Source: an uncultured bacterium
GTDB lineage: Bacteria > Bacillota_I > Bacilli_A > RFN20 > CAG-826
Reading direction: 5' to 3'
Assembly (NCBI GenBank): GCA_949291375.1
Contig: CASEVI010000003.1
Span: 14,224 to 78,223 of the forward strand
Length of the DNA stretch: 64,000 nt
Each line of letters opens with the position of its first letter. The stretch's first letter is position 1. Under the pieces are notes generated by a model, which saw only the letters and a program-made list of their open reading frames with translations, was not told the origin of the DNA and searched no databases. Positions 19,583 to 44,480 of this stretch are shown here, one piece after another. The position numbers were made by a program, and so were the translations under genes.

Positions 19583-19657
19583 TTTTTAAACTGGTTGCAG
19601 AGGTTGGAATTGAACCAACGACCTTACGCTAACGAAACGCAAATGCTACCACTACAC
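19583..19657 (-). tRNA. phage-encoded tRNA, anticodon probably CGU (Thr), with a C1xA72 mismatch
   Basis: Hand-folded cloverleaf: acceptor CGCAGAG/CTCTGCA, D-loop AGTGGTA, anticodon stem TGCGT/GCGTA with loop TTCGTTA, T-arm GTTGG-TTCAATT-CCAAC, then ACCA. Confidence 0.6.
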
Positions 19658-19708
19658 CACTCTGCGATATGGTCCCCTTTTTGAATAGAAGGGGAAAACT
19701 ATTAATTA

Positions 19709-24031: not shown

Positions 24032-24278
24032 CGTTTAAGTGTTCTCCGTCTTGTGGACTTAAATAGTCAACTGTTTCATTTCTTCTTTGCAAAATATAAT
24101 CAAGTCTTCCCTTACAAATATCTAAATCATTTCTCAACTTTTGGTTTTCTTCTTTTAAGGACTTAATTTCTTTAAGCAATAACAAATCATCTTCTTTTAA
24201 GTTTAAAAGTGCTAACACTCTACCTAGTGAATTAGCCATTTTAATATCTCTTCGCTTTAAACTTGTTAATCTGCCCAT
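24024..24278 (-). CDS. small coiled-coil protein (84 aa)
   Basis: Overlaps the terL stop; leucine-rich heptads. Confidence 0.4.
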   Translation of the reverse strand: MGRLTSLKRRDIKMANSLGRVLALLNLKEDDLLLLKEIKSLKEENQKLRNDLDICKGRLDYILQRRNETVDYLSPQDGEHLNDE

Positions 24279-25993
24279 GTATAAATGTCCTCAATTTGAT
24301 TTTCATCTTCGTAATCTTTATCTAAATCGAGAGGGTCAAAGCCAATTTTTTTAACTAACATTTTATGTAAGTTATCTTCAACATCGGCTCTTTGTTGCTC
24401 TCTACCATAATAAGCAATTAATAATGCCATAACGCAGTCATCATGGCTCTTACCACTGCCCTTTGCTTTAACTCTTTCGCTGTTGGAACTTTCTTCATAA
24501 ACGAAGCTTTCCATTTGCGTAAGAGTTTCGAAATCGTAAATGTTTGTATAAGTTTTCTCTCTACAGATACCTACTGCAATATCAACCATTGTTTTTTTGT
24601 TATATCCAGTCTTTACACCATAGAGTTCATATAATGCCCCGCTAAATGAACTATCTTGAGCCTCACGAATATAAACATGGTTATAATTTGCTTTCATAAA
24701 GAACTTAACCATTGCGTCTGTTGTATTCGTTTCTGGAACAAGTAAAGCGTCATTATATTTCTTTGCAAGCAATATTGCTTTTGCTGAACTTATATCATTG
24801 TCTTCACCTTTGACCATATAAGTTGCTACTTGTTTTAATGTTGCATTGTCTATTACTTGGAAAACTGTATAATCGATACCTTTTCCTCTTGCTGGGTCAA
24901 TTCCAATAACATAAGGGTGTCCTTCTATTGGTCTTTCATAAACCTTCAAATTTCCGACCTTCGTTTTTCTAAATTCCACATTTTCGATTTTATAATCTGT
25001 GAAACTACCTTTAATATCGAAATAGAAATCTCCTTGTAAATAATGAACATTTTCACTAACAAATTGCTTTCTAATTGCGATAGCCTCATTATCAAAAACC
25101 GAATTACCAGTAGAGATAAAGGCATCCATTGGAATTGTTGGATTTTCTTGCTTCATTAAGTTTAAATCTTTCTTTAACTCGACCCATTTAACTCTCCACC
25201 AAGCCATTTGCTCATCACTTAAGTGATAATCTTTTTGCAACTTTTCTTCATAAGGTGTTTTTGTAAAACCATCATAAGGAAGTTCATTTCCCTTTTTCAT
25301 AAACCAAGGATAAAAGAAAGATTTCCATATACCTTGTTTTGAAACTCCTAGATCGTAATAGTCTTTAAAACTATTAAAACCATTTGCTGTGGATTCTATA
25401 AACACCATATTTTCAAGGTTGCCCATATAGACCGATTGGAGAATTGCAGTTAAAGTTCCATCTAAATCATCATAGAAACCAGCCTCGGATAAATGCACAT
25501 AATTAATAGTCGCACCTCTACCAACACCATCGCCTTGAGTTAAAACTCTTATTGATGATCCAGTAGATTGAGATTGGATTTCTCTTCTATTATCAGCACT
25601 TAACTTTGTCTTTAATGCTTCTGGAAGGTTATCATAAAACCTCTTATACATCTTAAAGATTTCGCCAGTGCTTTCTGTTTTATGAGCAATAATAACCGCC
25701 TTACGATTTGATTGAAACATTGTTAAAACAAAAATTAAAGAAGCGATAAAGGTTGTAAATCCAAGTTGTCTAGCTTTTAAAATAACAAACCTAATAGGTT
25801 TCTTATTCTTAACACATTTACAAATTTCAAAGAGCAATTCATTTTGTGCTTCATTAAGTTCCAAGGTATGCGTGGCTGAAGTTTCATCAACAATGTAGAT
25901 AAAATTTTTCAGCCACTTTTTAAATGAATAAAGTTTGGAACCTAACGAGAAATATAAATCCGTGCAATCTTCGTTAGTCCTTATCATTTCCAA
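24266..25993 (-). CDS. terminase large subunit
   Basis: 575 aa; Walker-A-like VILKARQLGFTT; nuclease-type C-terminal half. Confidence 0.8.
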   Translation of the reverse strand: MEMIRTNEDCTDLYFSLGSKLYSFKKWLKNFIYIVDETSATHTLELNEAQNELLFEICKCVKNKKPIRFVILKARQLGFTTFIASLIFVLTMFQSNRKAVIIAHKTESTGEIFKMYKRFYDNLPEALKTKLSADNRREIQSQSTGSSIRVLTQGDGVGRGATINYVHLSEAGFYDDLDGTLTAILQSVYMGNLENMVFIESTANGFNSFKDYYDLGVSKQGIWKSFFYPWFMKKGNELPYDGFTKTPYEEKLQKDYHLSDEQMAWWRVKWVELKKDLNLMKQENPTIPMDAFISTGNSVFDNEAIAIRKQFVSENVHYLQGDFYFDIKGSFTDYKIENVEFRKTKVGNLKVYERPIEGHPYVIGIDPARGKGIDYTVFQVIDNATLKQVATYMVKGEDNDISSAKAILLAKKYNDALLVPETNTTDAMVKFFMKANYNHVYIREAQDSSFSGALYELYGVKTGYNKKTMVDIAVGICREKTYTNIYDFETLTQMESFVYEESSNSERVKAKGSGKSHDDCVMALLIAYYGREQQRADVEDNLHKMLVKKIGFDPLDLDKDYEDENQIEDIYTWAD

Positions 25994-26252
25994 CCTCTGC
26001 TTGTTTTAAAATAACTTCAAGAGAAAGTGTCCCACTGATTTCCTTCCTTTCGACATCTTCTCCAGCGATCTTTTGAAGTTCGATTAAAGATGATGTTTTA
26101 GGTCTCTCTAAAACTTTAGCAACACCAACACGAGCAATATATTCTGCCGTGGTATATTTGCTTAAGTCTTCATCTAAAGGAATCTCTCTTGTAGTATCTG
26201 CTGGTTGGGCTAATAATTCCTTGGTTGCTTCAGTGATAGTTTTATACTTCAT
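25974..26252 (-). CDS. candidate terminase small subunit (92 aa)
   Basis: Overlaps the terL start by 20 nt; first gene after the control region. Confidence 0.45.
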   Translation of the reverse strand: MKYKTITEATKELLAQPADTTREIPLDEDLSKYTTAEYIARVGVAKVLERPKTSSLIELQKIAGEDVERKEISGTLSLEVILKQAEVGNDKD

Positions 26253-27019
26253 ACTTTTGCACTAATACAAGAGAGTTTATTTGTCAAGTGGGAAATATTT
26301 TAAATTGACAACAGTAAGAATTGAAAAATTAGGAAAAATTGTAATGGGACTAAATTTATATAATTGTGCCCCCTAGTCATTTTAGGATAGGGGTGGGGGT
26401 GTATAAAGACATGATAAAAATCCCTATATTATGGGCTTAATAATCATTAATATTGACTATATTTTCACATAAAAATGGACATTAATATATAAAAAATGCG
26501 ATAAATACCGATATGTTGGTATTCTTAAAAGAATATTAACCACTAATTATAATTTTGATTTTTTATTTTAATTGTATTTATTTAACAATTGACTATTTAT
26601 TATAACAATAAAAATATAGTTTCTTTTTAATATAACTATTTTTTAATATAACTATAATTATTAATACATATTTTATTTTTATCTTAAATAAGAATATTTT
26701 CGTTTTAATTATATTTACATCTAATTTAACTAATTCATTTTATTAATTATATAAATTTAATTTATTAAATATGTCTTAATTATAACAATAATATATAAAA
26801 TAATTATTAGTTATAACTTATATTATTCGGTTTATTTATAATTTGATTGTTAATTATAACGTTTAGTAATGAGAAAAAATTTTTAATTGACTATTTTAAT
26901 ACCGAAAATTTTTACACTGTCAAAAAAGTAAAGAGTAATTAGTATAAGGGTGAAAGTTAAGTTTTCAAGCTTTCCTTACTTGGACACTTAGAGCCAAGAA
27001 GATTTGGGGGTTATAAACC
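26253..27019. promoter_or_regulatory. 767-bp AT-rich divergent control region with a G-rich palindrome and repeated TTATAAC / TAATATAACTAT motifs
   Basis: CCCCTA-12nt-TAGGGGTGGGGGTG at 26381-26403; direct repeat taatataactat x2 at 26626-26660; four ATTATAAC-like copies at 26598-26860. Confidence 0.6.
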
Positions 27020-27499
27020 ATGAAAGAAAACAAAAATGGCACAATTACATTAACAAAAGCCGAATTATTAGAATTTATTCAAGAGAGTATTAAAAAACAA
27101 ACTAGCAAACAACAACCACTTTTTAGCCAAGAAGACATAATCAAAAACGCTAAAAAAAATTACATCAAGTTTTTAACAAGTCAAAACTTTCAAGTAGCAA
27201 GTTATAACGACTTATTTACATTACTTGAAAATAAAGTCTTAAATAGCAAAAAGTTTTGCGGTGTTGAAAAAGACATGTTAGACATTGTTAATTATGCTTT
27301 AAAAAACGATTACAAAGCACTTTTAGATGGTGCAAAAAAAGATTTTGTTAAACATTGTCGCTATCAAGTTTCTTTTAAGAAACTAGATAAAGAGCAATGG
27401 TTAGCAATAGATAACAACAATGTTTGTTATATCAAGCAAGTTAAAGACAATAAAGTCAAAATCATCGAAAAATCAATAAATGATTTCTTAGGGGCTTAA
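27020..27499 (+). CDS. hypothetical early protein (159 aa)
   Basis: ORF with GGGGG RBS. Confidence 0.55.
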   Translation: MKENKNGTITLTKAELLEFIQESIKKQTSKQQPLFSQEDIIKNAKKNYIKFLTSQNFQVASYNDLFTLLENKVLNSKKFCGVEKDMLDIVNYALKNDYKALLDGAKKDFVKHCRYQVSFKKLDKEQWLAIDNNNVCYIKQVKDNKVKIIEKSINDFLGA

Positions 27500-27501
27500 C
27501 T

Positions 27502-27627
27502 ATGAAAAAATATTACATTACTTTACACGGCATAAAAATAGCCGTTTATGATACATATAATCAAGCAATTGAAAGTTTAAAATATTTTCAAGAGATTAAC
27601 AAAAATTATCAATTAAAAGCACTATAA
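27502..27627 (+). CDS. small ORF (41 aa) followed by a terminator
   Basis: ATG 2 nt after the upstream stop; terminator AAGCACT-ataaaa-AGTGCTTTTTTT at 27609-27636. Confidence 0.25.
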   Translation: MKKYYITLHGIKIAVYDTYNQAIESLKYFQEINKNYQLKAL

Positions 27628-27824
27628 AAAGTGCTTTTTTTATATGTTGTTTTAATTTTAAAGTGCTTGTTAAATTACAAGTGCTTTTTATTTAGCGTTT
27701 AAACGCTTAAATTTAAACGATTTTATTAATGGTGCTATATTTATACCATTTTTTAGTTTTTGTTTAAATATGAGCATTTAAAACGCATTTATGAACGTTT
27801 CTTAAAATTATGGGGGTTTAAAAA

Positions 27825-28802
27825 ATGAAAGACAAGAAACAACTAAAAATTTTTAACATGATTAATGACCAGATTTTAGAGTGCTTAAAAAATGATAGAT
27901 TTCCAGGCATTGCACCAAGTATCAAACTACAAGATAGTTATTTTGATTTTGCATTTAACTATTTTAGTGAAAGACCATACACGGGCGTGAATAAGATATT
28001 TTTAAAGCCTGGTGCTTATGTTTGTTTTAGTCAATTAAAAGAACACGGCTTAAAACTTAAAGAAACACACCAAACATATAGAGCTTTTCAATCATGGTTC
28101 AAGACATGGTTAAAAATAAAAACGGAAGATGGCGAGCAAATAATACCAAAAGACATCTATGAAAAAAACGGTATGCAAAACGAAATCATAGACACGTTAA
28201 TTAGTTGCACATATTCATACCAAATCGTTTTTAACATCGAAGATATTGAAAATCTTCCAGAAAGAAAACTAAAGACGGGCAAAAAGACACCATTCGTTTT
28301 AGTTGAAAGTAGCGAGAATAGAAATCCACTCTGCGATTTATTCTTAAATGCATACGTTAAACGAGAAAAGATAAACGTATATAAGGGCGAAAATTCTTAC
28401 TATGACCCTAAACACGATGAAATCACATTGAAAGATTTCACAACATTTAAAAATGCAAACGAATTTTATGAACAATACTTTCATGAGTGCGCTCATTCAA
28501 CAGGTGCTTATACACGACTTAATAGAAAGTCAATTGTTGAAAGTCAAGCACGATTTGGAAGTGGCGAATATAACCTAGAAGAAATTGTCGCAGAAACATG
28601 CGCAATGTATTCGCTTAAAGAAATGGGAATGCTCACAAATGCACAAGTAAATAATTGCATTGCTTATATCAAAGGCTATTGGCAAACCGAAGAGGCTCAA
28701 AAAGAAATCAAGAAAGACCCTAGCGTATTAGCAAAAGCATTAACAAATGCAGAAAGAGCATTTAATTACATTTTCAAAAAGGAGCGTTATGCAAAAGATT
28801 AA
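27825..28802 (+). CDS. ArdC-like anti-restriction protein (N-terminal ssDNA-binding region plus C-terminal zincin-like HExxH)
   Basis: C-terminus YFHECAHSTGAYTRLNRK...EYNLEEIVAETCAMYSLKEMGM matches the ArdC motif HE.AHSTGH..RLNR; N-terminus ERPYTGVNKIFL. Confidence 0.7.
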   Translation: MKDKKQLKIFNMINDQILECLKNDRFPGIAPSIKLQDSYFDFAFNYFSERPYTGVNKIFLKPGAYVCFSQLKEHGLKLKETHQTYRAFQSWFKTWLKIKTEDGEQIIPKDIYEKNGMQNEIIDTLISCTYSYQIVFNIEDIENLPERKLKTGKKTPFVLVESSENRNPLCDLFLNAYVKREKINVYKGENSYYDPKHDEITLKDFTTFKNANEFYEQYFHECAHSTGAYTRLNRKSIVESQARFGSGEYNLEEIVAETCAMYSLKEMGMLTNAQVNNCIAYIKGYWQTEEAQKEIKKDPSVLAKALTNAERAFNYIFKKERYAKD

Positions 28803-29013
28803 AGATGTGAAAAGAAAAATTCGTGTTTATTTATATAATCGCAAAAAGAAAAAATGTGAGTTAAATGATTTAACTCAAAGACAATACAAAAAATATTCAA
28901 AGCAAGGTGTCGTAATTAGTAAATACGAGCCTACTTGTGAAACTTTTTTAATGGATACAAACGATAAATTTTTACTAGATAATTACGACAAATATGGGAG
29001 GAAAAAACAATGA
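28789..29013 (+). CDS. small basic protein (74 aa)
   Basis: AAGGAG RBS before the ATG at 28789. Confidence 0.45.
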   Translation: MQKIKDVKRKIRVYLYNRKKKKCELNDLTQRQYKKYSKQGVVISKYEPTCETFLMDTNDKFLLDNYDKYGRKKQ

Positions 29014-29037
29014 ATATCGTAATGGTTTATAACAAGA

Positions 29038-29068
29038 AAACGGGCAAAAAAAAGCCCGTTTTAATTAA
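29038..29068 (+). terminator. rho-independent terminator
   Basis: AAACGGGC-aaaaaaaa-GCCCGTTT followed by TTAATT. Confidence 0.65.
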
Positions 29069-29133
29069 GTCTTTACACGATTATTTACGTGTTGAAAGAA
29101 ATAGAAATTTAATAATTTTAAGGGGCAATTAAT

Positions 29134-30165
29134 ATGGGAAAAATTAAAATTAACATTTACAACACAAACGCAATTGTTTTAAACGAATTAATGAAACAAA
29201 ACGCAGTCGAAACAACCGAACAATTCGATGAAGTTGAAGTTGATGAAGATACTTATAACGAAATAATGCAAGAACAAGAAGGCGAAAATAAACAAGAGCA
29301 AAAAGTTGAATCAAAAACTTCAAAAAAGAAAAAGCAAGAAAGTGAAGAAGAGCAACAAGAAGAAAAACCAAAACAAAAAATGGACACTTCTACTTCTCTT
29401 TACATCAAACCTAAATGTTACGACCACGTTAAGAATTTACTTAATGCTGGATTAATACCATTACTAGTAGGTCAAGCAGGTGTAGGCAAAACAGAAATGG
29501 CTATTAATTTAGCGAAAGATTTAGGGCTTAACTTTTATAGTGAAGCACAAATTACCGACCCATATACAATTAAGGGCTATATGGACGCAAACGGCAAATA
29601 TGTTGAAAGCAATTTCTTTAAGGCTTATACCGAAGGTGGTTTATTCTTACTTGATGAAATAGACGCATCTGATCCAAACGCTTTAGTTGCAATGAACCAA
29701 GCAATGGCTAATAGTTGTTATTCATTCCCACACGGTGTTTTTAAGAAGCATAAAGATTTCCATTGTATTGCAACAGCAAATACTTTTGGCGATGGTGCTT
29801 CAATGGAATATGTTGGAAGGAACCAACTCGACACAGCAACCTTGAATCGTATGTGGACAACTATTGTTGAACCAGATAGCAAAGTCGAGAAAAAACTTTC
29901 AAAAGATACTGATTTAATTGCTTTCTTGCAAGACATTAGAAAAGTATGCAACCAATTAGAAAATCACGTAATTATTTCTTATCGTTCATTTATTGCATTA
30001 AACAAAATGAATGAGATTGAACCAGACAACTTAGTTGTCAATATAAAAGAATGTTTGTTCCCAAATTTAAGCAAACAAGACATCGCTCAAATATTTAATA
30101 ATTGTTGCTTTAGCGATAATAAATATTATCAAGCATTAAAAAAATTAGGGGGTTATGCAAAATGA
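29134..30165 (+). CDS. AAA+ ATPase, MoxR / AAA_5-like, with an acidic low-complexity N-terminus
   Basis: Walker A LLVGQAGVGKTEMA; Walker B LFLLDEIDAS; sensor CIATANTFG. Confidence 0.75.
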   Translation: MGKIKINIYNTNAIVLNELMKQNAVETTEQFDEVEVDEDTYNEIMQEQEGENKQEQKVESKTSKKKKQESEEEQQEEKPKQKMDTSTSLYIKPKCYDHVKNLLNAGLIPLLVGQAGVGKTEMAINLAKDLGLNFYSEAQITDPYTIKGYMDANGKYVESNFFKAYTEGGLFLLDEIDASDPNALVAMNQAMANSCYSFPHGVFKKHKDFHCIATANTFGDGASMEYVGRNQLDTATLNRMWTTIVEPDSKVEKKLSKDTDLIAFLQDIRKVCNQLENHVIISYRSFIALNKMNEIEPDNLVVNIKECLFPNLSKQDIAQIFNNCCFSDNKYYQALKKLGGYAK

Positions 30166-30980
30166 GACAATTCAACGATATAAATAACAAATGCTCTTTA
30201 AGAATTTACGATAATATCGGCGATTTTATAGAAAACATTAATAAAAGCGAAACAAAAAATATATATTTTGACATGTATTGCACTATTCAAAATATTAGCA
30301 CTCAAGATATGATTAATAACTCATATCTTGGGGATAAAAACCTTGCTTCAAAAATTAATAAACAAGTTGATATTGCTTCAAAAGAATTATCTACTGGAAT
30401 TGTCAATAGAAACAAATTACAAAACAGTTTTTATGGGTCAAAAGTGAACGTTCCTAAATATACAATGGGTCTTCCAGATAGTATGTATCGCTTTAAAAAA
30501 CAAGAAATAAATCAAAAAATATTAAACGTGTTAATTGATATTGGCTATCCTTGGAAAGTCAGCAATGAAGATGCAGAAAGAAAAATGATAGAAATATTTT
30601 CTTACATTACTTCACTTGAACAAAAAGGTTATCGAATACAATTAAATGTATCACACTTGGTTTACACAAATAATCAAGTTATGTTTGATAAAATCGGTAT
30701 AATAATACCTCTCAAAAAACCAAGCGAAAGATTAAACCTTATGCGTTTTATAACTATCTGTTGTAATCCAAAATTCTTTAGAACATTAATGTTTGCAGAA
30801 CTTAGAGAATACTGGCAAAACAAAGTTGCGAATTTAGGTTATGCAATGTGGTTGAATGAAAACTATTACTCAAAGTTTTTAAATGAGCTAGTAGCACCAA
30901 AACTTTACTCAAAGGAAGACAACCTTATAGCTCTTAATTATCATTCTGATTTAAAACAAGCATTTAGTAAATACTTATAG
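30162..30980 (+). CDS. partner protein of the AAA+ ATPase (272 aa, unknown fold, no obvious MIDAS)
   Basis: ATGA start/stop overlap with the upstream gene (translational coupling). Confidence 0.6.
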   Translation: MRQFNDINNKCSLRIYDNIGDFIENINKSETKNIYFDMYCTIQNISTQDMINNSYLGDKNLASKINKQVDIASKELSTGIVNRNKLQNSFYGSKVNVPKYTMGLPDSMYRFKKQEINQKILNVLIDIGYPWKVSNEDAERKMIEIFSYITSLEQKGYRIQLNVSHLVYTNNQVMFDKIGIIIPLKKPSERLNLMRFITICCNPKFFRTLMFAELREYWQNKVANLGYAMWLNENYYSKFLNELVAPKLYSKEDNLIALNYHSDLKQAFSKYL

Positions 30981-30991
30981 GAGGCTTTTAA

Positions 30992-31240
30992 ATGAACAAC
31001 ACAAGAGAAAAGATTTTAATAATGAGAAATTATTTAAAAGGCTGGAGCGATAAATACTCTAGCCTTTTCATTAAGCGTAGAAAGAATATTATTTATTACA
31101 AAAATCCAAACGGCTTAATGAAATTAACAATTGCTGAATTTAACGAATTATTTAACGATTTAGCAAAAGAAATTTATCAAGAAGACTTATCAACCAAGTA
31201 TTTAAAAATATTTGAAAAAATAGGCTATAAAGCAAAATAA
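30992..31240 (+). CDS. small early protein (82 aa)
   Basis: GGAGG RBS. Confidence 0.55.
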   Translation: MNNTREKILIMRNYLKGWSDKYSSLFIKRRKNIIYYKNPNGLMKLTIAEFNELFNDLAKEIYQEDLSTKYLKIFEKIGYKAK

Positions 31241-31253
31241 AAAGGGAGAATTT

Positions 31254-31466
31254 ATGAAACAATTAACAATTAACGACTTATTTAAACTTTGCAGACAAGA
31301 AATTGCAAAAGGAAACGGAGATAGAAGAATTTATACTGCCGATGATGATGAAGGGAATGGCTATCATGGAATTTATTATGCGTTCACTGAATTTAGTCAA
31401 GAAGATTGCGAAAATTCTTATGGTCTTGAAGACGAAAATGCTAAAGAAATAATTATTTTAGATTAA
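31254..31466 (+). CDS. small acidic protein (70 aa)
   Basis: GGGAGA RBS; D/E-rich. Confidence 0.55.
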   Translation: MKQLTINDLFKLCRQEIAKGNGDRRIYTADDDEGNGYHGIYYAFTEFSQEDCENSYGLEDENAKEIIILD

Positions 31467-31481
31467 AAAGAGAGTTGATTT

Positions 31482-31727
31482 ATGAAATTTTTTGAAACAG
31501 ATTTACATTATAAGGAAATTGAAGAACTAGAAAAACAAGGCTACAAAGTTTATCAAAGAAGAGATAATTGGGGTTATGAAAATGACACAATAGAAAAATG
31601 GGTTTTAGTTAATCATTTTAGTGAAATTGTTACAAAAGAAAATATTGATTTTGGAAAAGATAGATATATTAACTATGCTCAATTTGTAAGAAATAACGAA
31701 GAAGTTTTTAGTTTAAACGACTTATAG
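31482..31727 (+). CDS. small protein (81 aa)
   Basis: AGAGAG RBS. Confidence 0.55.
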   Translation: MKFFETDLHYKEIEELEKQGYKVYQRRDNWGYENDTIEKWVLVNHFSEIVTKENIDFGKDRYINYAQFVRNNEEVFSLNDL

Positions 31728-31737
31728 TGGGGAAGAT

Positions 31738-31998
31738 ATGACAAAAAGAGATTTTAATAAAGAATTATGTGATGAACTTGTTGGAAGAGGAATTTTAACT
31801 ACTCGAGAAGAATTACTTGATTATGTTAAATATTGCATTGATGAAGATTTTTTACCTACTGCCAGTCACATTTTGGAAGAATTAAGTCTTTCAAGTGCAG
31901 ATTATTTTTTAACTGATTATTCAACTGGTTGTTGCTCAATCAATGATATACGCACAAAGGATGATATTCTTTCTTTTTGCGACATTGAATTATTTTAG
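31738..31998 (+). CDS. small acidic protein (86 aa)
   Basis: GGGGAAG RBS; D/E-rich. Confidence 0.55.
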   Translation: MTKRDFNKELCDELVGRGILTTREELLDYVKYCIDEDFLPTASHILEELSLSSADYFLTDYSTGCCSINDIRTKDDILSFCDIELF

Positions 31999-32011
31999 AA
32001 AGGAGATATAA

Positions 32012-32236
32012 ATGAAAGAACAATTATATAAATGTGTAGCTGATTTTGAAGATGGCAATTGGTGTGTTGGCACTACCCAAACAATTGAAGAGTGGCGAAC
32101 AAATGCTCTTATGTGGGCAGATAGTGATGGTTTTGATGGCGTGATTAAAACTCTAAAAAAACTAAACGGAAAAGAATTAATCGATTTTATTCAAGATTTT
32201 TGGCAAATTAGAATTGTCGAAGTTAAAGGAGAATAA
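32012..32236 (+). CDS. small acidic protein (74 aa)
   Basis: AAGGAGA RBS. Confidence 0.55.
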   Translation: MKEQLYKCVADFEDGNWCVGTTQTIEEWRTNALMWADSDGFDGVIKTLKKLNGKELIDFIQDFWQIRIVEVKGE

Positions 32237-32239
32237 GCT

Positions 32240-32530
32240 ATGGAAATTAAATTAATAAAAAAATACGATTTAGCAACTTATATAAGTAATATTGATTATT
32301 TTTACGATCGATATTGTGGAGAAAATAATCTTCCTTGTTATCAGTTATATTTAAACTTATTCAAAATAATATCAAAAAATTTGTTTAGAGAATTTATCGA
32401 ATATGTTGAAGATTTATTAAATAATAACTACCAACAAAAAAGTTTCGATGAAGATGATTTTATCGATTTTCTTATAAATGCATCTGATGATCTTATTGAT
32501 TTAAAAAAAAGCACCAACATTTTAAGTTAG
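32240..32530 (+). CDS. small acidic protein (96 aa)
   Basis: AAGGAGA RBS; D/E-rich C-terminus. Confidence 0.55.
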   Translation: MEIKLIKKYDLATYISNIDYFYDRYCGENNLPCYQLYLNLFKIISKNLFREFIEYVEDLLNNNYQQKSFDEDDFIDFLINASDDLIDLKKSTNILS

Positions 32531-32596
32531 TGCTTTTCTTGTTAGTGCTTATTTTAAGCATAATCATTATAGCACAATGGTTTATTCCGTTGTGCT
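32513..32596 (+). terminator. two consecutive plus-strand terminators ending the rightward early block
   Basis: AAGCAC-15nt-GTGCTTTTCTT, and ATAGCACAA-12nt-TTGTGCTAT followed by T8. Confidence 0.65.
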
Positions 32597-32779
32597 ATTT
32601 TTTTTGTCTAAAATTTCTATTAATTGACTAAACTCACTAATCAACGAACCTTGAAAATATTTTATTTGATTTTTGCTAACTGCCATATTTTCATTACTCG
32701 TATTCATAAATTCTAGTAAGTATAATAAATCGGTTTTAATTGCGTTTTTTAAACTTTCTAATCTTTCATCATCACTCAT
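32582..32779 (-). CDS. small acidic protein (65 aa)
   Basis: Last ORF of the leftward early operon. Confidence 0.45.
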   Translation of the reverse strand: MSDDERLESLKNAIKTDLLYLLEFMNTSNENMAVSKNQIKYFQGSLISEFSQLIEILDKKNSTTE

Positions 32780-35835: not shown

Positions 35836-36252
35836 TTAGTCATCTAACTCTAACTCCTTTAAAGTATAATAATGATTTAATTCAAGATTATTAAAAAGTT
35901 CTCTATCATTAAAAGAAAAACGACATTTAACTATATTCTTTTCACTCTCAAAACAAAGATAATATAAACGAGTCAATTCATCATATTCAATTTTAATAAG
36001 CTCTATTCCTCTATTTTTCATAAACTTTAAAACGCCCTTAATAAGTTCTTTTTCATCTTTCCTTAATAATGGTTCCTCATAAATTTCCCAATTATCACAA
36101 GTAAAATCATATCGATTAAAGTTATAATCTTTGCAGGTATCATTGTCGTAAATATGTATACCCTTTAATTCGATATAATGTTTTGGGTTCCAAAAAGTTC
36201 TTCTTATCTTTTTGCCTTCTCTTAATGCTGGTAATACTTCTTCAAATTTCAT
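35836..36252 (-). CDS. hypothetical protein (138 aa)
   Basis: ORF. Confidence 0.45.
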   Translation of the reverse strand: MKFEEVLPALREGKKIRRTFWNPKHYIELKGIHIYDNDTCKDYNFNRYDFTCDNWEIYEEPLLRKDEKELIKGVLKFMKNRGIELIKIEYDELTRLYYLCFESEKNIVKCRFSFNDRELFNNLELNHYYTLKELELDD

Positions 36253-43370: not shown

Positions 43371-44480
43371 ATGGCTGTATTATTTGATAAAAAATCAAAA
43401 ACTTATTATGTAGACTCAAAAATTAAAAGAGCAGATGGAAGTTGGTATCATTTTAAGTATAAAGAAATTAACAACCAAGACTTCAAAAGTAAGCGATACG
43501 TTCAATCTATCGAAGCAGAAATTATTAGAAAAAAGAAAGTTGAAATTTGTTATCAACCATCATCAAAAGTTCAAAATGTTAGTGATTTAATCGAAAGTTA
43601 TATTAATTATCGAGAGAACGAACTTGCTTTCAACACAAAAGCAAACAATTTTTTAAGGGCTAAAAAATATATCGAGCCTTATTTTGAAAACTCTTTGTTA
43701 AAACTTTTTAATCCAGCTAATTTAGCCTCGTTTAGAATTTATCTTTCTAGCTTAAAGATTTGCGCTGAATATATGAATAATATAATTGCTATCACTCGTG
43801 ATTTAATTCGTTATGCAAGAATACTTGGTTTAATCAATAGCGATCAAAAAGATGATTGTCTTGTTCCTTTAATTCCTATCAAGAAAAAAGTTAATGAAGA
43901 AAAAGAAGCGAGGAATAAATATACTTCACTCAATGATTTAACGAAACTTCTTTCTGTAATCGATAATAAAAACGACTATGATATTTTAAAACTTTTATAT
44001 TTTAGTGGTCTTCGTCTTGGAGAGTTTTTAGGTATCGAAGTTAATGACATTGAGTTTAGTGATGATTTTGCAATTATCACAATTAAAAGACAAAGATTGA
44101 AAAATGGAGCATATACTAACCAATTAAAAACTTCTGCTTCTTATAAAAAAATAGCCTTTGCAAAAACAAATGCCGAAATTTTAAAAGAATATATTAAGCG
44201 AAACGATTTCAAAGAATACGATAAAATTTTCCCATTCAGTGGTGAGACTTTAAGAAAAAAATTAGATAAATATTCTAAACTCGCTAATCTTCCACACAAT
44301 ACTCTTCATGGCTATGGAAGAAAATCAATTAACACTGAACTTTATAAGGCTGGTGCTGACACAAAAGTTAGAACCACACTTTTAGGTCAAATTTCAATGT
44401 CGGTAAATGAGAACAATTATGTTGATAATCAAAGTGCTTTTGATAAGGGCTTAGATTTTATAAAATCAATTTCAGAGTAG
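43371..44480 (+). CDS. int: tyrosine-type site-specific integrase
   Basis: LLYFSGLRLGEFLGIEVNDIE (Arg box); C-terminal HTLHGYGRKS...LLGQ with Tyr; 369 aa. Confidence 0.75.
   Translation: MAVLFDKKSKTYYVDSKIKRADGSWYHFKYKEINNQDFKSKRYVQSIEAEIIRKKKVEICYQPSSKVQNVSDLIESYINYRENELAFNTKANNFLRAKKYIEPYFENSLLKLFNPANLASFRIYLSSLKICAEYMNNIIAITRDLIRYARILGLINSDQKDDCLVPLIPIKKKVNEEKEARNKYTSLNDLTKLLSVIDNKNDYDILKLLYFSGLRLGEFLGIEVNDIEFSDDFAIITIKRQRLKNGAYTNQLKTSASYKKIAFAKTNAEILKEYIKRNDFKEYDKIFPFSGETLRKKLDKYSKLANLPHNTLHGYGRKSINTELYKAGADTKVRTTLLGQISMSVNENNYVDNQSAFDKGLDFIKSISE

Follow-up and report, generated by a model that had tools for sequence, protein, structure and literature searches.

A prophage MoxR-class ATPase and its DUF7192 partner, a predicted VWA-derived adaptor that lacks the MIDAS

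We analyzed a stretch of 64,000 nucleotides from an uncultured bacterium (NCBI GenBank assembly GCA_949291375.1, contig CASEVI010000003.1, positions 14,224 to 78,223 of the forward strand), referred to here as the window, and focused on a pair of overlapping genes at positions 29134 to 30980. The window carries a prophage of a low-GC Firmicute (genome GC content 27%), and both genes are on the + strand. An earlier note, made from the sequence alone, had described them as a two-gene module consisting of a MoxR-like AAA+ ATPase and a non-VWA partner, possibly an uncharacterized phage module acting in either anti-defense or defense. The open reading frames (ORFs) for the ATPase (29134..30165, 343 amino acids) and the partner (30162..30980, 272 amino acids) overlap by 4 nt, as the note had stated. 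The junction reads ...GGGGGTTATGCAAAATGAGAC..., in which ATGA is the stop of one gene and the start of the other, and a purine-rich ribosome binding site is located upstream of each start codon. Judging from the Pfam AAA_5 and DUF7192 scores, which are above the cut-offs, both ORFs are real genes and not chance ORFs. The features of the pair are as follows.

29134..30165, + strand: MoxR-class (AAA_5; NorQ/CbbQ/CobS-like) AAA+ ATPase, 343 amino acids
29134..29418, + strand: E/K/Q-rich N-terminal extension of the ATPase, residues 1-95, predicted to be disordered (predicted local distance difference test score, pLDDT, 39-62 for residues 1-90)
29470..29493, + strand: Walker A motif GQAGVGKT, residues 113-120
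29554..29607, + strand: helix-2 insert region, residues ~141-158, predicted beta-hairpin; putative adaptor-gripping element by analogy with NorQ/CobS
29641..29658, + strand: Walker B motif LFLLDE, residues 170-175
29710..29751, + strand: predicted pre-sensor-1 beta-hairpin, residues ~193-206 (strands 195-198 and 201-204 in the AlphaFold2 (AF2) model)
30162..30165, + strand: ATGA stop/start overlap of 4 nt, consistent with translational coupling
[quoted passage not shown]
30390..30518, + strand: candidate 'shaft/finger' of the partner, residues 77-119 (in the model, strand 85-89, short helix 97-101 and strand 108-112), immediately N-terminal to the first core strand
30537..30551, + strand: degenerate MIDAS position D126-I-G128-Y-P130, after the first core strand
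30714..30782, + strand: stretch from K185 to R207, both of them basic and invariant in the family; putative site for target binding or with a structural role

The first protein is, by sequence profiles and a structure model, a MoxR-class AAA+ motor of the helix-2-insert clade. It matches Pfam AAA_5 with 43.6 bits (cut-off 22; E = 3.8e-11) and phrog_249, a family labelled 'porphyrin biosynthesis', with E = 2.6e-44. When a profile of 36 ATPase sequences was compared with solved structures, it matched the AAA modules of midasin (1e-32), CobS (5e-13, residues 59-282), NorQ and CbbQ. Together with the AAA_5 match, these results bear out the earlier identification of a MoxR-like ATPase. The remaining motifs are sensor 1 (IATAN, N216), GRN (R229), LNRM (R239) and sensor 2 (SYR, R284). 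Residues G113, G116, G118, K119, D174, E175, R229 and R239 were invariant in the 36 homologues, and N216 and R284 were conserved in at least 90% of them; the Walker A, Walker B and sensor motifs are thus intact, as originally read, and so is the arginine finger (R229/R239). In the AF2 model, residues 95-343 form a confident AAA+ module (means of 10-residue blocks mostly >85). Members of the helix-2-insert clade typically have two inserted beta-hairpins, the helix-2 insert and the pre-sensor-1 hairpin; both are predicted here, and DSSP assigned short strand elements at residues ~149-157 between beta2 and alpha2. The best fold matches for the model were NorQ (9qh8_C; E = 6.8e-13, template modeling (TM) score 0.71 normalized on NorQ), followed by CbbQ (6l1q/5c3c) and Rea1. 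The length of the N-terminal extension varies among the homologues, which are proteins of 298 to 599 amino acids.

The second protein is a member of the DUF7192 family (Pfam PF23822; 67.2 bits with a cut-off of 27, E = 2e-18, model positions 7-220 of 281) and matches phrog_1909, for which no function is annotated (1e-19). An exhaustive HMMER scan yielded approximately 800 DUF7192 clusters at the 50% identity level (E ≤ 1e-3), and nearly all of the listed matches were single-domain proteins of 250-320 amino acids. A word-indexed homologue search with the partner found four close relatives, and the closest public relative of its gene is in a metagenome-assembled genome of an 'uncultured Bacilli bacterium'. 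There was no match to the partner sequence in the PDB, even at E ≤ 10. Among 57 diverse DUF7192 members, G92, P105, K185 and R207 were invariant (K185 and R207 each in 57/57), and G57, M108, E153, G156 and G226 were nearly so. The most conserved stretches are around residues 92-108, 153-156, 185-207 and 226. The stretch ITICCNPKFFRTLMFAELREYWQ, residues 197-219 of the partner, includes the family-invariant R207.

An AF2 model of the partner, built on the 57-member alignment, had a pLDDT of 91.8 and a predicted TM score of 0.86. Its elements follow one another as strands (2-15), helices (19-76), the segment at residues 77-119, a strand (120-126), a helix (135-154) and further strands (158-185). 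The segment at 77-119 has lower pLDDT values, yet it contains the most conserved motif of the family (G92, P105, M108), and its position immediately before beta1 corresponds to that of the shaft of CobT. The MIDAS position, which follows the first core strand, is degenerate. The absence of a DxSxS MIDAS, reported in the earlier note, is confirmed by D126, G128 and P130 at this position and holds for the family: D was found in 42% of the members, S or T at +2 in 44% and S at +4 in 32%, and only 1/57 had a full Dx[ST]x[ST] triad. The N-terminal half is indeed rich in asparagine (14%, compared to 8.8% in the C-terminal half), which is unremarkable because the genome has a GC content of 27%, and this half is predicted with high confidence to be well folded.

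Structure comparisons suggest a relation of the partner to VWA proteins. When the partner model was searched against the PDB with Foldseek, the first four ranks were taken by the NorD VWA protein, as chain G of four NorQ-NorD complexes solved by cryo-EM (E = 2e-4 to 2.4e-3, probability 0.97-1.0), and VWA domains were frequent at the next ranks (TRAP, Rea1-MIDAS, Ku70/80 and factor B). Given the Foldseek results for the two models, the best solved counterpart of each protein in the pair is one subunit type of the same NorQ-NorD complex. Among predicted viral structures (BFVD), family members took the first twelve ranks, with TM scores of 0.48-0.69; four were unnamed, and the eight named DUF7192 came from phages of Mycobacterium, Gordonia and Lactobacillus and from uncultured phages. 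Ranks 13-35 were mostly phage proteins called 'CobT', 'cobalamin biosynthesis' or 'VWFA' (E = 6e-6 to 1e-3, 144-320 aligned columns). The predicted order of elements in the partner mirrors that of the published CobT C-terminal domain (beta0-alpha0'-alpha0-shaft-VWA). In an alignment made with hhalign, which was not significant, the strand KILNVLID-IGYP fell on the CobT-like strand that ends in DxSGSM, and the DUF7192 motif V.G..P.VP.YL.G.P..M fell on the CobT-like SG.YNI.RG..GTTAR.FDK just before that strand.

Several results weigh against a VWA origin of the partner. It had no match to Pfam VWA, VWA_2 or CobT_C at E ≤ 0.1. Profile comparisons of DUF7192 with three plasmid VWA proteins (E = 0.64) and with 28 phage CobT-like proteins (E = 0.23) were not significant, and the Foldseek TM scores of the partner to VWA proteins were low, between 0.25 and 0.39. 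The same results favor the alternative that the partner is unrelated to VWA proteins and is some other alpha/beta protein paired with the ATPase, in which case the Foldseek matches would reflect a generic Rossmann-like similarity. This alternative seems improbable. The matches are specific, with NorD at the top of the PDB list, VWA domains frequent below it and CobT-like or VWFA proteins predominating among the viral matches outside the family. In addition, the hhalign register is the one that the structure predicts, though the alignment is not significant, and in a locus with a more distant ATPase (L024, see below) a canonical VWA partner holds the gene position of DUF7192. We therefore consider it very probable, given the specific match lists, the expected hhalign register and the CobT_C-like order of elements, that the partner is a VWA-derived adaptor of CobT/NorD-type descent. 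This link comes from structure and context, and sequence profiles do not confirm it. The term 'non-VWA partner' used in the earlier note thus does not seem to hold at the level of the fold, although it agrees with the sequence tests. The note had also held that a match of the partner to a VWA protein or another known MoxR cofactor would refute its proposal; we found such a match in the structure searches and no significant one with Pfam or hhalign.

The two genes are tightly coupled across phages. We fetched 18 loci bearing a DUF7192 gene, comprising three diverged variants of this prophage lineage, several metagenomic contigs and the named phages Staphylococcus A3R (gp046/gp045), Lactobacillus 3-521, Listeria LP-083-2 and LP-018, Rhizobium P106B and Mycobacterium JoeDirt. 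The ATPase gene was directly adjacent and co-oriented in 18/18. For a test that did not depend on the partner, 80 IMG/VR loci were chosen by ATPase motifs alone. A DUF7192 gene was present on the same strand in 78 of these, directly adjacent in 76 (65 downstream and 11 upstream); in the two loci without it, the ATPase gene is at a contig end or is followed by too little sequence. The co-occurrence of the pair, which the earlier note had proposed to analyze across prophages, is therefore strong. The ATPase and DUF7192 genes are coupled almost without exception and make up an obligate module of phages.

Strictly lytic Herelleviridae that infect Staphylococcus, Listeria and Lactobacillus carry the pair. 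In Staphylococcus phage K, the DUF7192 homologue (gp221) and the ATPase (gp220/gp219) are in one transcription unit, which is classed as middle/early (PMC9241854 supplement). The phage K reference record (NC_005880.2, 20303-21422) divides the ATPase into two annotated pieces separated by a gap, gp220 (585 nt) and gp219 (267 nt), and in phage A3R it is a single gene of 1119 nt (L001, 3586-4704). The split in phage K could reflect an interruption of the gene, the presence of an intron or an artefact of annotation. In Mycobacterium phage DirkDirk (Bronvirus; L025, 2026-2994), we found only a truncated ATPase covering profile positions 55-200 and no detectable DUF7192. Its relative JoeDirt has both genes, and the module appears to be decaying in DirkDirk.

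More distant ATPases have canonical VWA partners. In L024, where the ATPase has 27% identity, the overlapping downstream gene encodes a 626-amino-acid protein with VWA, VWA_2 and CobT_C domains. ATPases at an even greater distance are encoded on IncHI and Vibrio plasmids, where they belong to AAA-DUF3150-VWA triads. DUF7192 thus fills the slot of the VWA adaptor, since L024 and the plasmid relatives have a VWA protein there. We located these triads on IncHI-type Klebsiella and E. coli plasmids and on a Vibrio plasmid (L015, 5728-9959; L016, 5701-11413; L017, 5710-9949). They adjoin genes for transfer (TrhI/TrhN) and for a toprim protein, and the Vibrio triad is also next to a lambda-type exonuclease; no function is annotated for the triads.

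Comparisons with known systems indicate which parts of the pair are shared and which are different. The pair is a direct member of the DUF7192/phrog_1909 and phrog_249 pairs, with the same gene order and adjacency as in phage K (gp221 and gp220), A3R (gp045 and gp046), Listeria LP-083-2 (gp173 and gp172) and Mycobacterium JoeDirt (gp130 and gp131). With the Staphylococcus phage proteins, the partner shares approximately 28% identity and the ATPase 39%. Unlike these pairs, the one in the window is located in a probable operon with ArdC-like and LPD28 genes, which are absent there. NorQ-NorD (PDB 9qh4-9qhg, PMC13036017) is likewise a motor and adaptor encoded by two genes; the ATPase resembles NorQ (E = 7e-13), the partner resembles NorD chain G (E = 2e-4), and the helix-2 insert and pre-sensor-1 hairpins are predicted in the window ATPase as well. 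In contrast to NorD, a protein of approximately 70 kDa, the partner (272 amino acids) is less than half the size, and it lacks the MIDAS, the N-terminal domain and the disordered linker. The window pair is in a phage, there are no nor genes nearby, and sequence similarity to NorD is undetectable. In the case of CobS-CobT (PDB 9ujv etc.; bioRxiv 10.64898/2026.07.21.739949) and phage 'cobST', the ATPase profile matches CobS residues 59-282, the partner has the element order of CobT_C, and phage CobT-like proteins are its nearest structural neighbors outside the family. The partner differs from CobT in having no MIDAS, no M48C-like N-terminal domain and no acidic linker, and in the window it is the N-terminus of the ATPase that carries a disordered segment, rich in E and K. 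The triads of plasmids and integrative and conjugative elements (IncHI, Vibrio pVgang) share with the pair an AAA_5-type ATPase (24-32% identity) and a location on mobile elements, and they have a VWA adaptor with an HExxH N-terminal domain. They differ in having a long canonical VWA partner and an additional DUF3150 gene, and in lacking DUF7192.

Taken together, we estimate with a probability of roughly 60% that the pair is a dedicated two-component protein-remodeling machine of the MoxR/VWA type, probably an accessory for host takeover or counter-defense early in infection. In NorQ-NorD, the VWA domain extends a finger into the hexamer pore, where it touches the helix-2 inserts, the adaptor is believed to be twisted and stretched as ATP is hydrolyzed, and the MIDAS site binds the client and not the motor (PMC13036017, PMC9976466). 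In CobS-CobT, six helix-2-insert hairpins surround the shaft, which projects into the ring (bioRxiv 10.64898/2026.07.21.739949). By analogy with these two systems, we infer a ring-and-shaft assembly that remodels a target. The ATPase would assemble as a hexameric ring. DUF7192 would be a trimmed CobT_C/NorD VWA module that keeps the N-terminal strand, the tandem helices, a shaft of approximately 40 residues and a VWA-like alpha/beta core, and from which the metal site (MIDAS) and the peptidase-like domain at the N-terminus have disappeared. One adaptor would plug the ring through its shaft (residues ~77-119), where it would be gripped by the helix-2-insert hairpins of the ATPase. ATP hydrolysis would then twist or pull the body of the adaptor, and the VWA-like body would pass the force to a bound client. 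Because the MIDAS is gone, the adaptor would hold its target by another surface, possibly including K185 and R207.

The biological role of such a machine was considered in light of the surrounding genes. The pair is part of a block of + strand genes (27020-32530) that is antiparallel to all surrounding genes and outside the structural block of the prophage. The structural genes are on the minus strand and encode the large terminase (24266-25993), portal, major head protein and tail fibre; RecT, YqaJ exonuclease, SSB and a DUF1064/Holliday-junction resolvase are also encoded on the minus strand. An integrase gene (43371-44480) is followed by ordinary host genes. Other features of the + strand block are as follows.

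27712..27741, + strand: promoter-like site TTTAAA-18-TATATT with TG extension, before the ArdC-like gene; possible operon start, weak
27825..28802, + strand: ArdC-like protein, 325 amino acids, with a C-terminal zincin metallopeptidase domain (HECAH) and a weakly ArdC-N-like N-terminus; upstream neighbor in the same probable operon
30992..32530, + strand: six tightly packed small ORFs (82, 70, 81, 86, 74 and 96 amino acids), downstream of the DUF7192 gene
31482-31727, + strand: LPD28 domain protein, 81 amino acids (Pfam LPD28 30.8 bits, cut-off 27)
32569..32598, + strand: strong intrinsic terminator-like hairpin, 12-bp stem and T-run, closing the + strand gene block

The ArdC-like gene, two tiny ORFs, the ATPase gene, the DUF7192 gene and the six small ORFs form a probable transcription unit, as judged from the flanking terminator-like hairpins and the promoter-like site. 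Six terminator-like sites were found in the region, compared to 1.6 expected. Promoter-like matches were not above expectation (26 found compared to 40.9 expected from shuffles). Two terminator-like hairpins (27615-27687) precede the gene at 27825, and three copies of AAAGTGCTT(T/G)TT build these two tandem hairpins (27615-27689). An AT-rich gap of approximately 770 bp (~26250-27020) separates the terminase side from the + strand block, and positions 26001-28000 have a GC content of 25%.

The ArdC-like and LPD28 genes provide the context that suggests host takeover or anti-defense. The ArdC-like protein matches Pfam MPTase-PolyVal (4.8e-19) and, over its full length, phrog_7245 'anti-restriction protein' (4.2e-34). 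It resembles ArdC in both respects and differs from it in that the match to the ssDNA-binding ArdC-N domain (ArdcN) reached 15.2 bits, below the Pfam cut-off of 22.6. This neighbor is kept in three diverged variants of the phage lineage. LPD28 is reported to associate with an MPTase, and such proteins have been read as facilitators of the early phase of invasion (Iyer et al. 2017); here the MPTase, in the ArdC-like gene, is separate and 2.7 kb upstream of the LPD28 gene. Other observations count against a role in counter-defense. The ArdC-like gene was found in 0/80 IMG/VR loci and is also absent from the Herelleviridae, Mycobacterium and Rhizobium phage loci, so the anti-restriction context is specific to this lineage; we rejected ArdC as a general partner of the pair for this reason, and a literature search found no link between ArdC and a MoxR pair. 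A precedent in favor of counter-defense comes from a transposon screen, in which phage Bas54 required a MoxR ATPase to overcome a predicted defense system. The ATPase gp004 of phage rV5, a guessed counterpart of the one in Bas54, matches the family weakly (P-loop and Walker B regions, E = 0.0015), and DUF7192 was not found in rV5 between 1 and 50 kb; the link to the Bas54 gene was rejected. The Bas54 result is an analogy and not evidence of homology.

Metallopeptidases of the zincin class recur beside the pair in other phages. In 9/80 viral loci (L026, L039, L043, L052, L057, L062, L076, L085 and L090), a SprT-like HExxH zincin of approximately 200 amino acids is encoded immediately upstream of the ATPase, by an ORF that ends at or overlaps the ATPase start. 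The match to SprT-like proteins is weak (E = 0.0027). HExxH is enriched among immediate neighbors of the pair (9/162, compared to 4/643). Cysteine pairs near the C-terminus of a representative suggest, by eye, a zinc ribbon. Canonical CobT-like partners have an invariant HExxH N-terminal domain fused to them, and we compared the upstream zincins with that domain. The active-site helix alone aligned, so homology was rejected and the recurrence is one of enzyme class and not of orthology. The findings suggest that a metallopeptidase may be an optional third component of the module. In this prophage, the pair may cooperate with the ArdC-like zincin protease, probably of the same operon, in that the motor and adaptor would make a host protein accessible to it. 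A full version of this idea would be a three-part counter-defense device, a 'split CobT', in which the MIDAS-less adaptor binds an immune or restriction protein of the host, the motor pulls on the shaft of the adaptor to unfold or dislodge the bound protein, and the ArdC-like zincin cleaves it. Such logic would explain both the SprT-like zincins in 9/80 loci and the HExxH domains fused to phage and plasmid CobT-like proteins, but we regard the complete scheme as speculative and unlikely.

Host takeover or anti-defense is the most plausible role, and activation of some enzyme is next. The pair could be an activase or a metal-insertion chaperone for a metalloenzyme of DNA or nucleotide metabolism, of the phage or the host, comparable to NorQD, CbbQO and CobST. 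All characterized close structural relatives are maturation factors or activases, and the neighbors of the pair in other phages are mostly genes of DNA or nucleotide metabolism, including nucleoside deoxyribosyltransferase (3-521, P106B), thymidine kinase, helicase, RuvC and glutaredoxin/thioredoxin. On the other hand, no single enzyme gene co-occurs with the pair, the largest neighbor family being the zincin in 9/80 loci, and loss of the MIDAS removes the client-binding site of NorD (PMC9976466). An activase role therefore seems unlikely, even as the strongest competitor of host takeover or anti-defense. A nucleoside 2-deoxyribosyltransferase gene is located just downstream of the pair in the unrelated phages Lactobacillus 3-521 (L002, 6885-7388) and Rhizobium P106B (L012, 6462-6770), an arrangement that could be fortuitous or could point to nucleotide salvage.

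A chaperone or co-chaperone pair for assembly of the virion or tail is a less credible possibility. A role of this kind has been reported for a MoxR/VWA pair in Acidianus two-tailed virus and proposed for jumbo phages (summarized in PMC7824862), and in Rhizobium phage P106B the pair is between tail and head genes. However, the structural genes that flank the P106B pair are on the other strand, and so are those of the prophage in the window, whose structural block does not include the pair; the phage K pair is in a middle/early and not a late unit, and the neighbors elsewhere are mostly genes of DNA or nucleotide metabolism. Conservation in lytic Herelleviridae and the early/middle unit of phage K argue against both virion assembly and defense.

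Defense, as a prophage defense or superinfection-exclusion module expressed as a moron in the lysogen, is very improbable. The + strand block runs opposite to the rest of the prophage and has its own terminator, and MoxR-VWA pairs are reported in bacterial conflict systems (PMC7159879). In contrast, the pair is conserved in the strictly lytic Herelleviridae, its neighbors in the window are anti-restriction-type genes, and PADLOC-DB v2 had no match better than E = 0.004: the best ATPase match (PDC-S73, P-loop region only) had E = 0.0044, and the partner had none. NCBIfam had no meaningful match for either protein. The profile searches suggested in the earlier note thus placed both proteins in Pfam families (AAA_5, DUF7192) and gave no meaningful match to a PADLOC defense model. 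Of the two functions that the note had proposed, defense is unlikely, given the lytic phages and the PADLOC result, and anti-defense is suggested by the local context only.

Least credible of all is an auxiliary metabolic pair that acts as a cobalt chelatase (CobS/CobT) and boosts cobalamin synthesis in the host, since the partner lacks the MIDAS motif of CobT, the M48C-like N-terminal domain with which CobT binds the CobS small domain, and a Pfam CobT_C match, the ATPase is structurally nearer to NorQ/CbbQ than to anything specific to chelatases, and the Staphylococcus and Lactobacillus hosts of pair-bearing phages are not known to have the aerobic CobN pathway. This role is implied by the phrog_249 label and by many GenBank annotations, and it would be consistent with the profile match to CobS, with the proposal that phage cobST clusters hijack host CobN (PMC8651126) and with the response of Listeria to infection by a P100-like phage, which strongly upregulates the host cobalamin/propanediol cluster (PMC12282133). 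P100-like phages carry the pair; the authors of that multi-omics study draw no connection, and the study has no data on the ATPase-DUF7192 genes.

Additional observations concern other parts of the window. An Rfam scan of the window found three tRNAs and nothing else. The tRNA-Thr (CGT) gene (19592-19666, - strand) is inside the structural module of the prophage, just downstream of the major head protein gene, and the remaining two (Arg-ACG and Leu-CAG) are in host DNA. Adjacency of the pair to tRNA genes was considered as a clue to RNA repair and rejected (2/13 loci). A 138-amino-acid protein encoded in the early region of the prophage (35836-36252, - strand) has a Tad2-like (Thoeris anti-defense 2-like) domain at residues 1-43 (Pfam, 31.2 bits compared to a cut-off of 25), which makes it a candidate anti-Thoeris sponge. 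A related prophage (L006) also encodes a Tad2-like protein.

The genes themselves are not new, as both families are catalogued in Pfam and PHROGs and the pair is in well-known phages. We found no mention of DUF7192 in the literature searched, and neither PADLOC nor NCBIfam had meaningful matches; the suggestion that the module is functionally uncharacterized was correct. What appears not to have been described is the near-absolute coupling of the two genes and the reading of DUF7192 as a MIDAS-less CobT_C/NorD-like adaptor of 'CobS-like' phage ATPases. Hundreds of sequenced phages carry the pair, among them therapeutic Staphylococcus Kayviruses and the P100/A511-like biocontrol phages of Listeria. 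The ATPase half is routinely mislabelled 'porphyrin biosynthesis', and recognition of the adaptor would correct this annotation. The adaptor reading also yields a concrete mechanism with elements that can be mutated, namely the shaft (residues 77-119), K185 and R207. If DUF7192 is a VWA-type adaptor, then MoxR motors can pair with adaptors that have no MIDAS, and targets would be recognized by a different surface. If the target is a host defense protein, the pair would represent a new class of ATP-driven anti-defense device.

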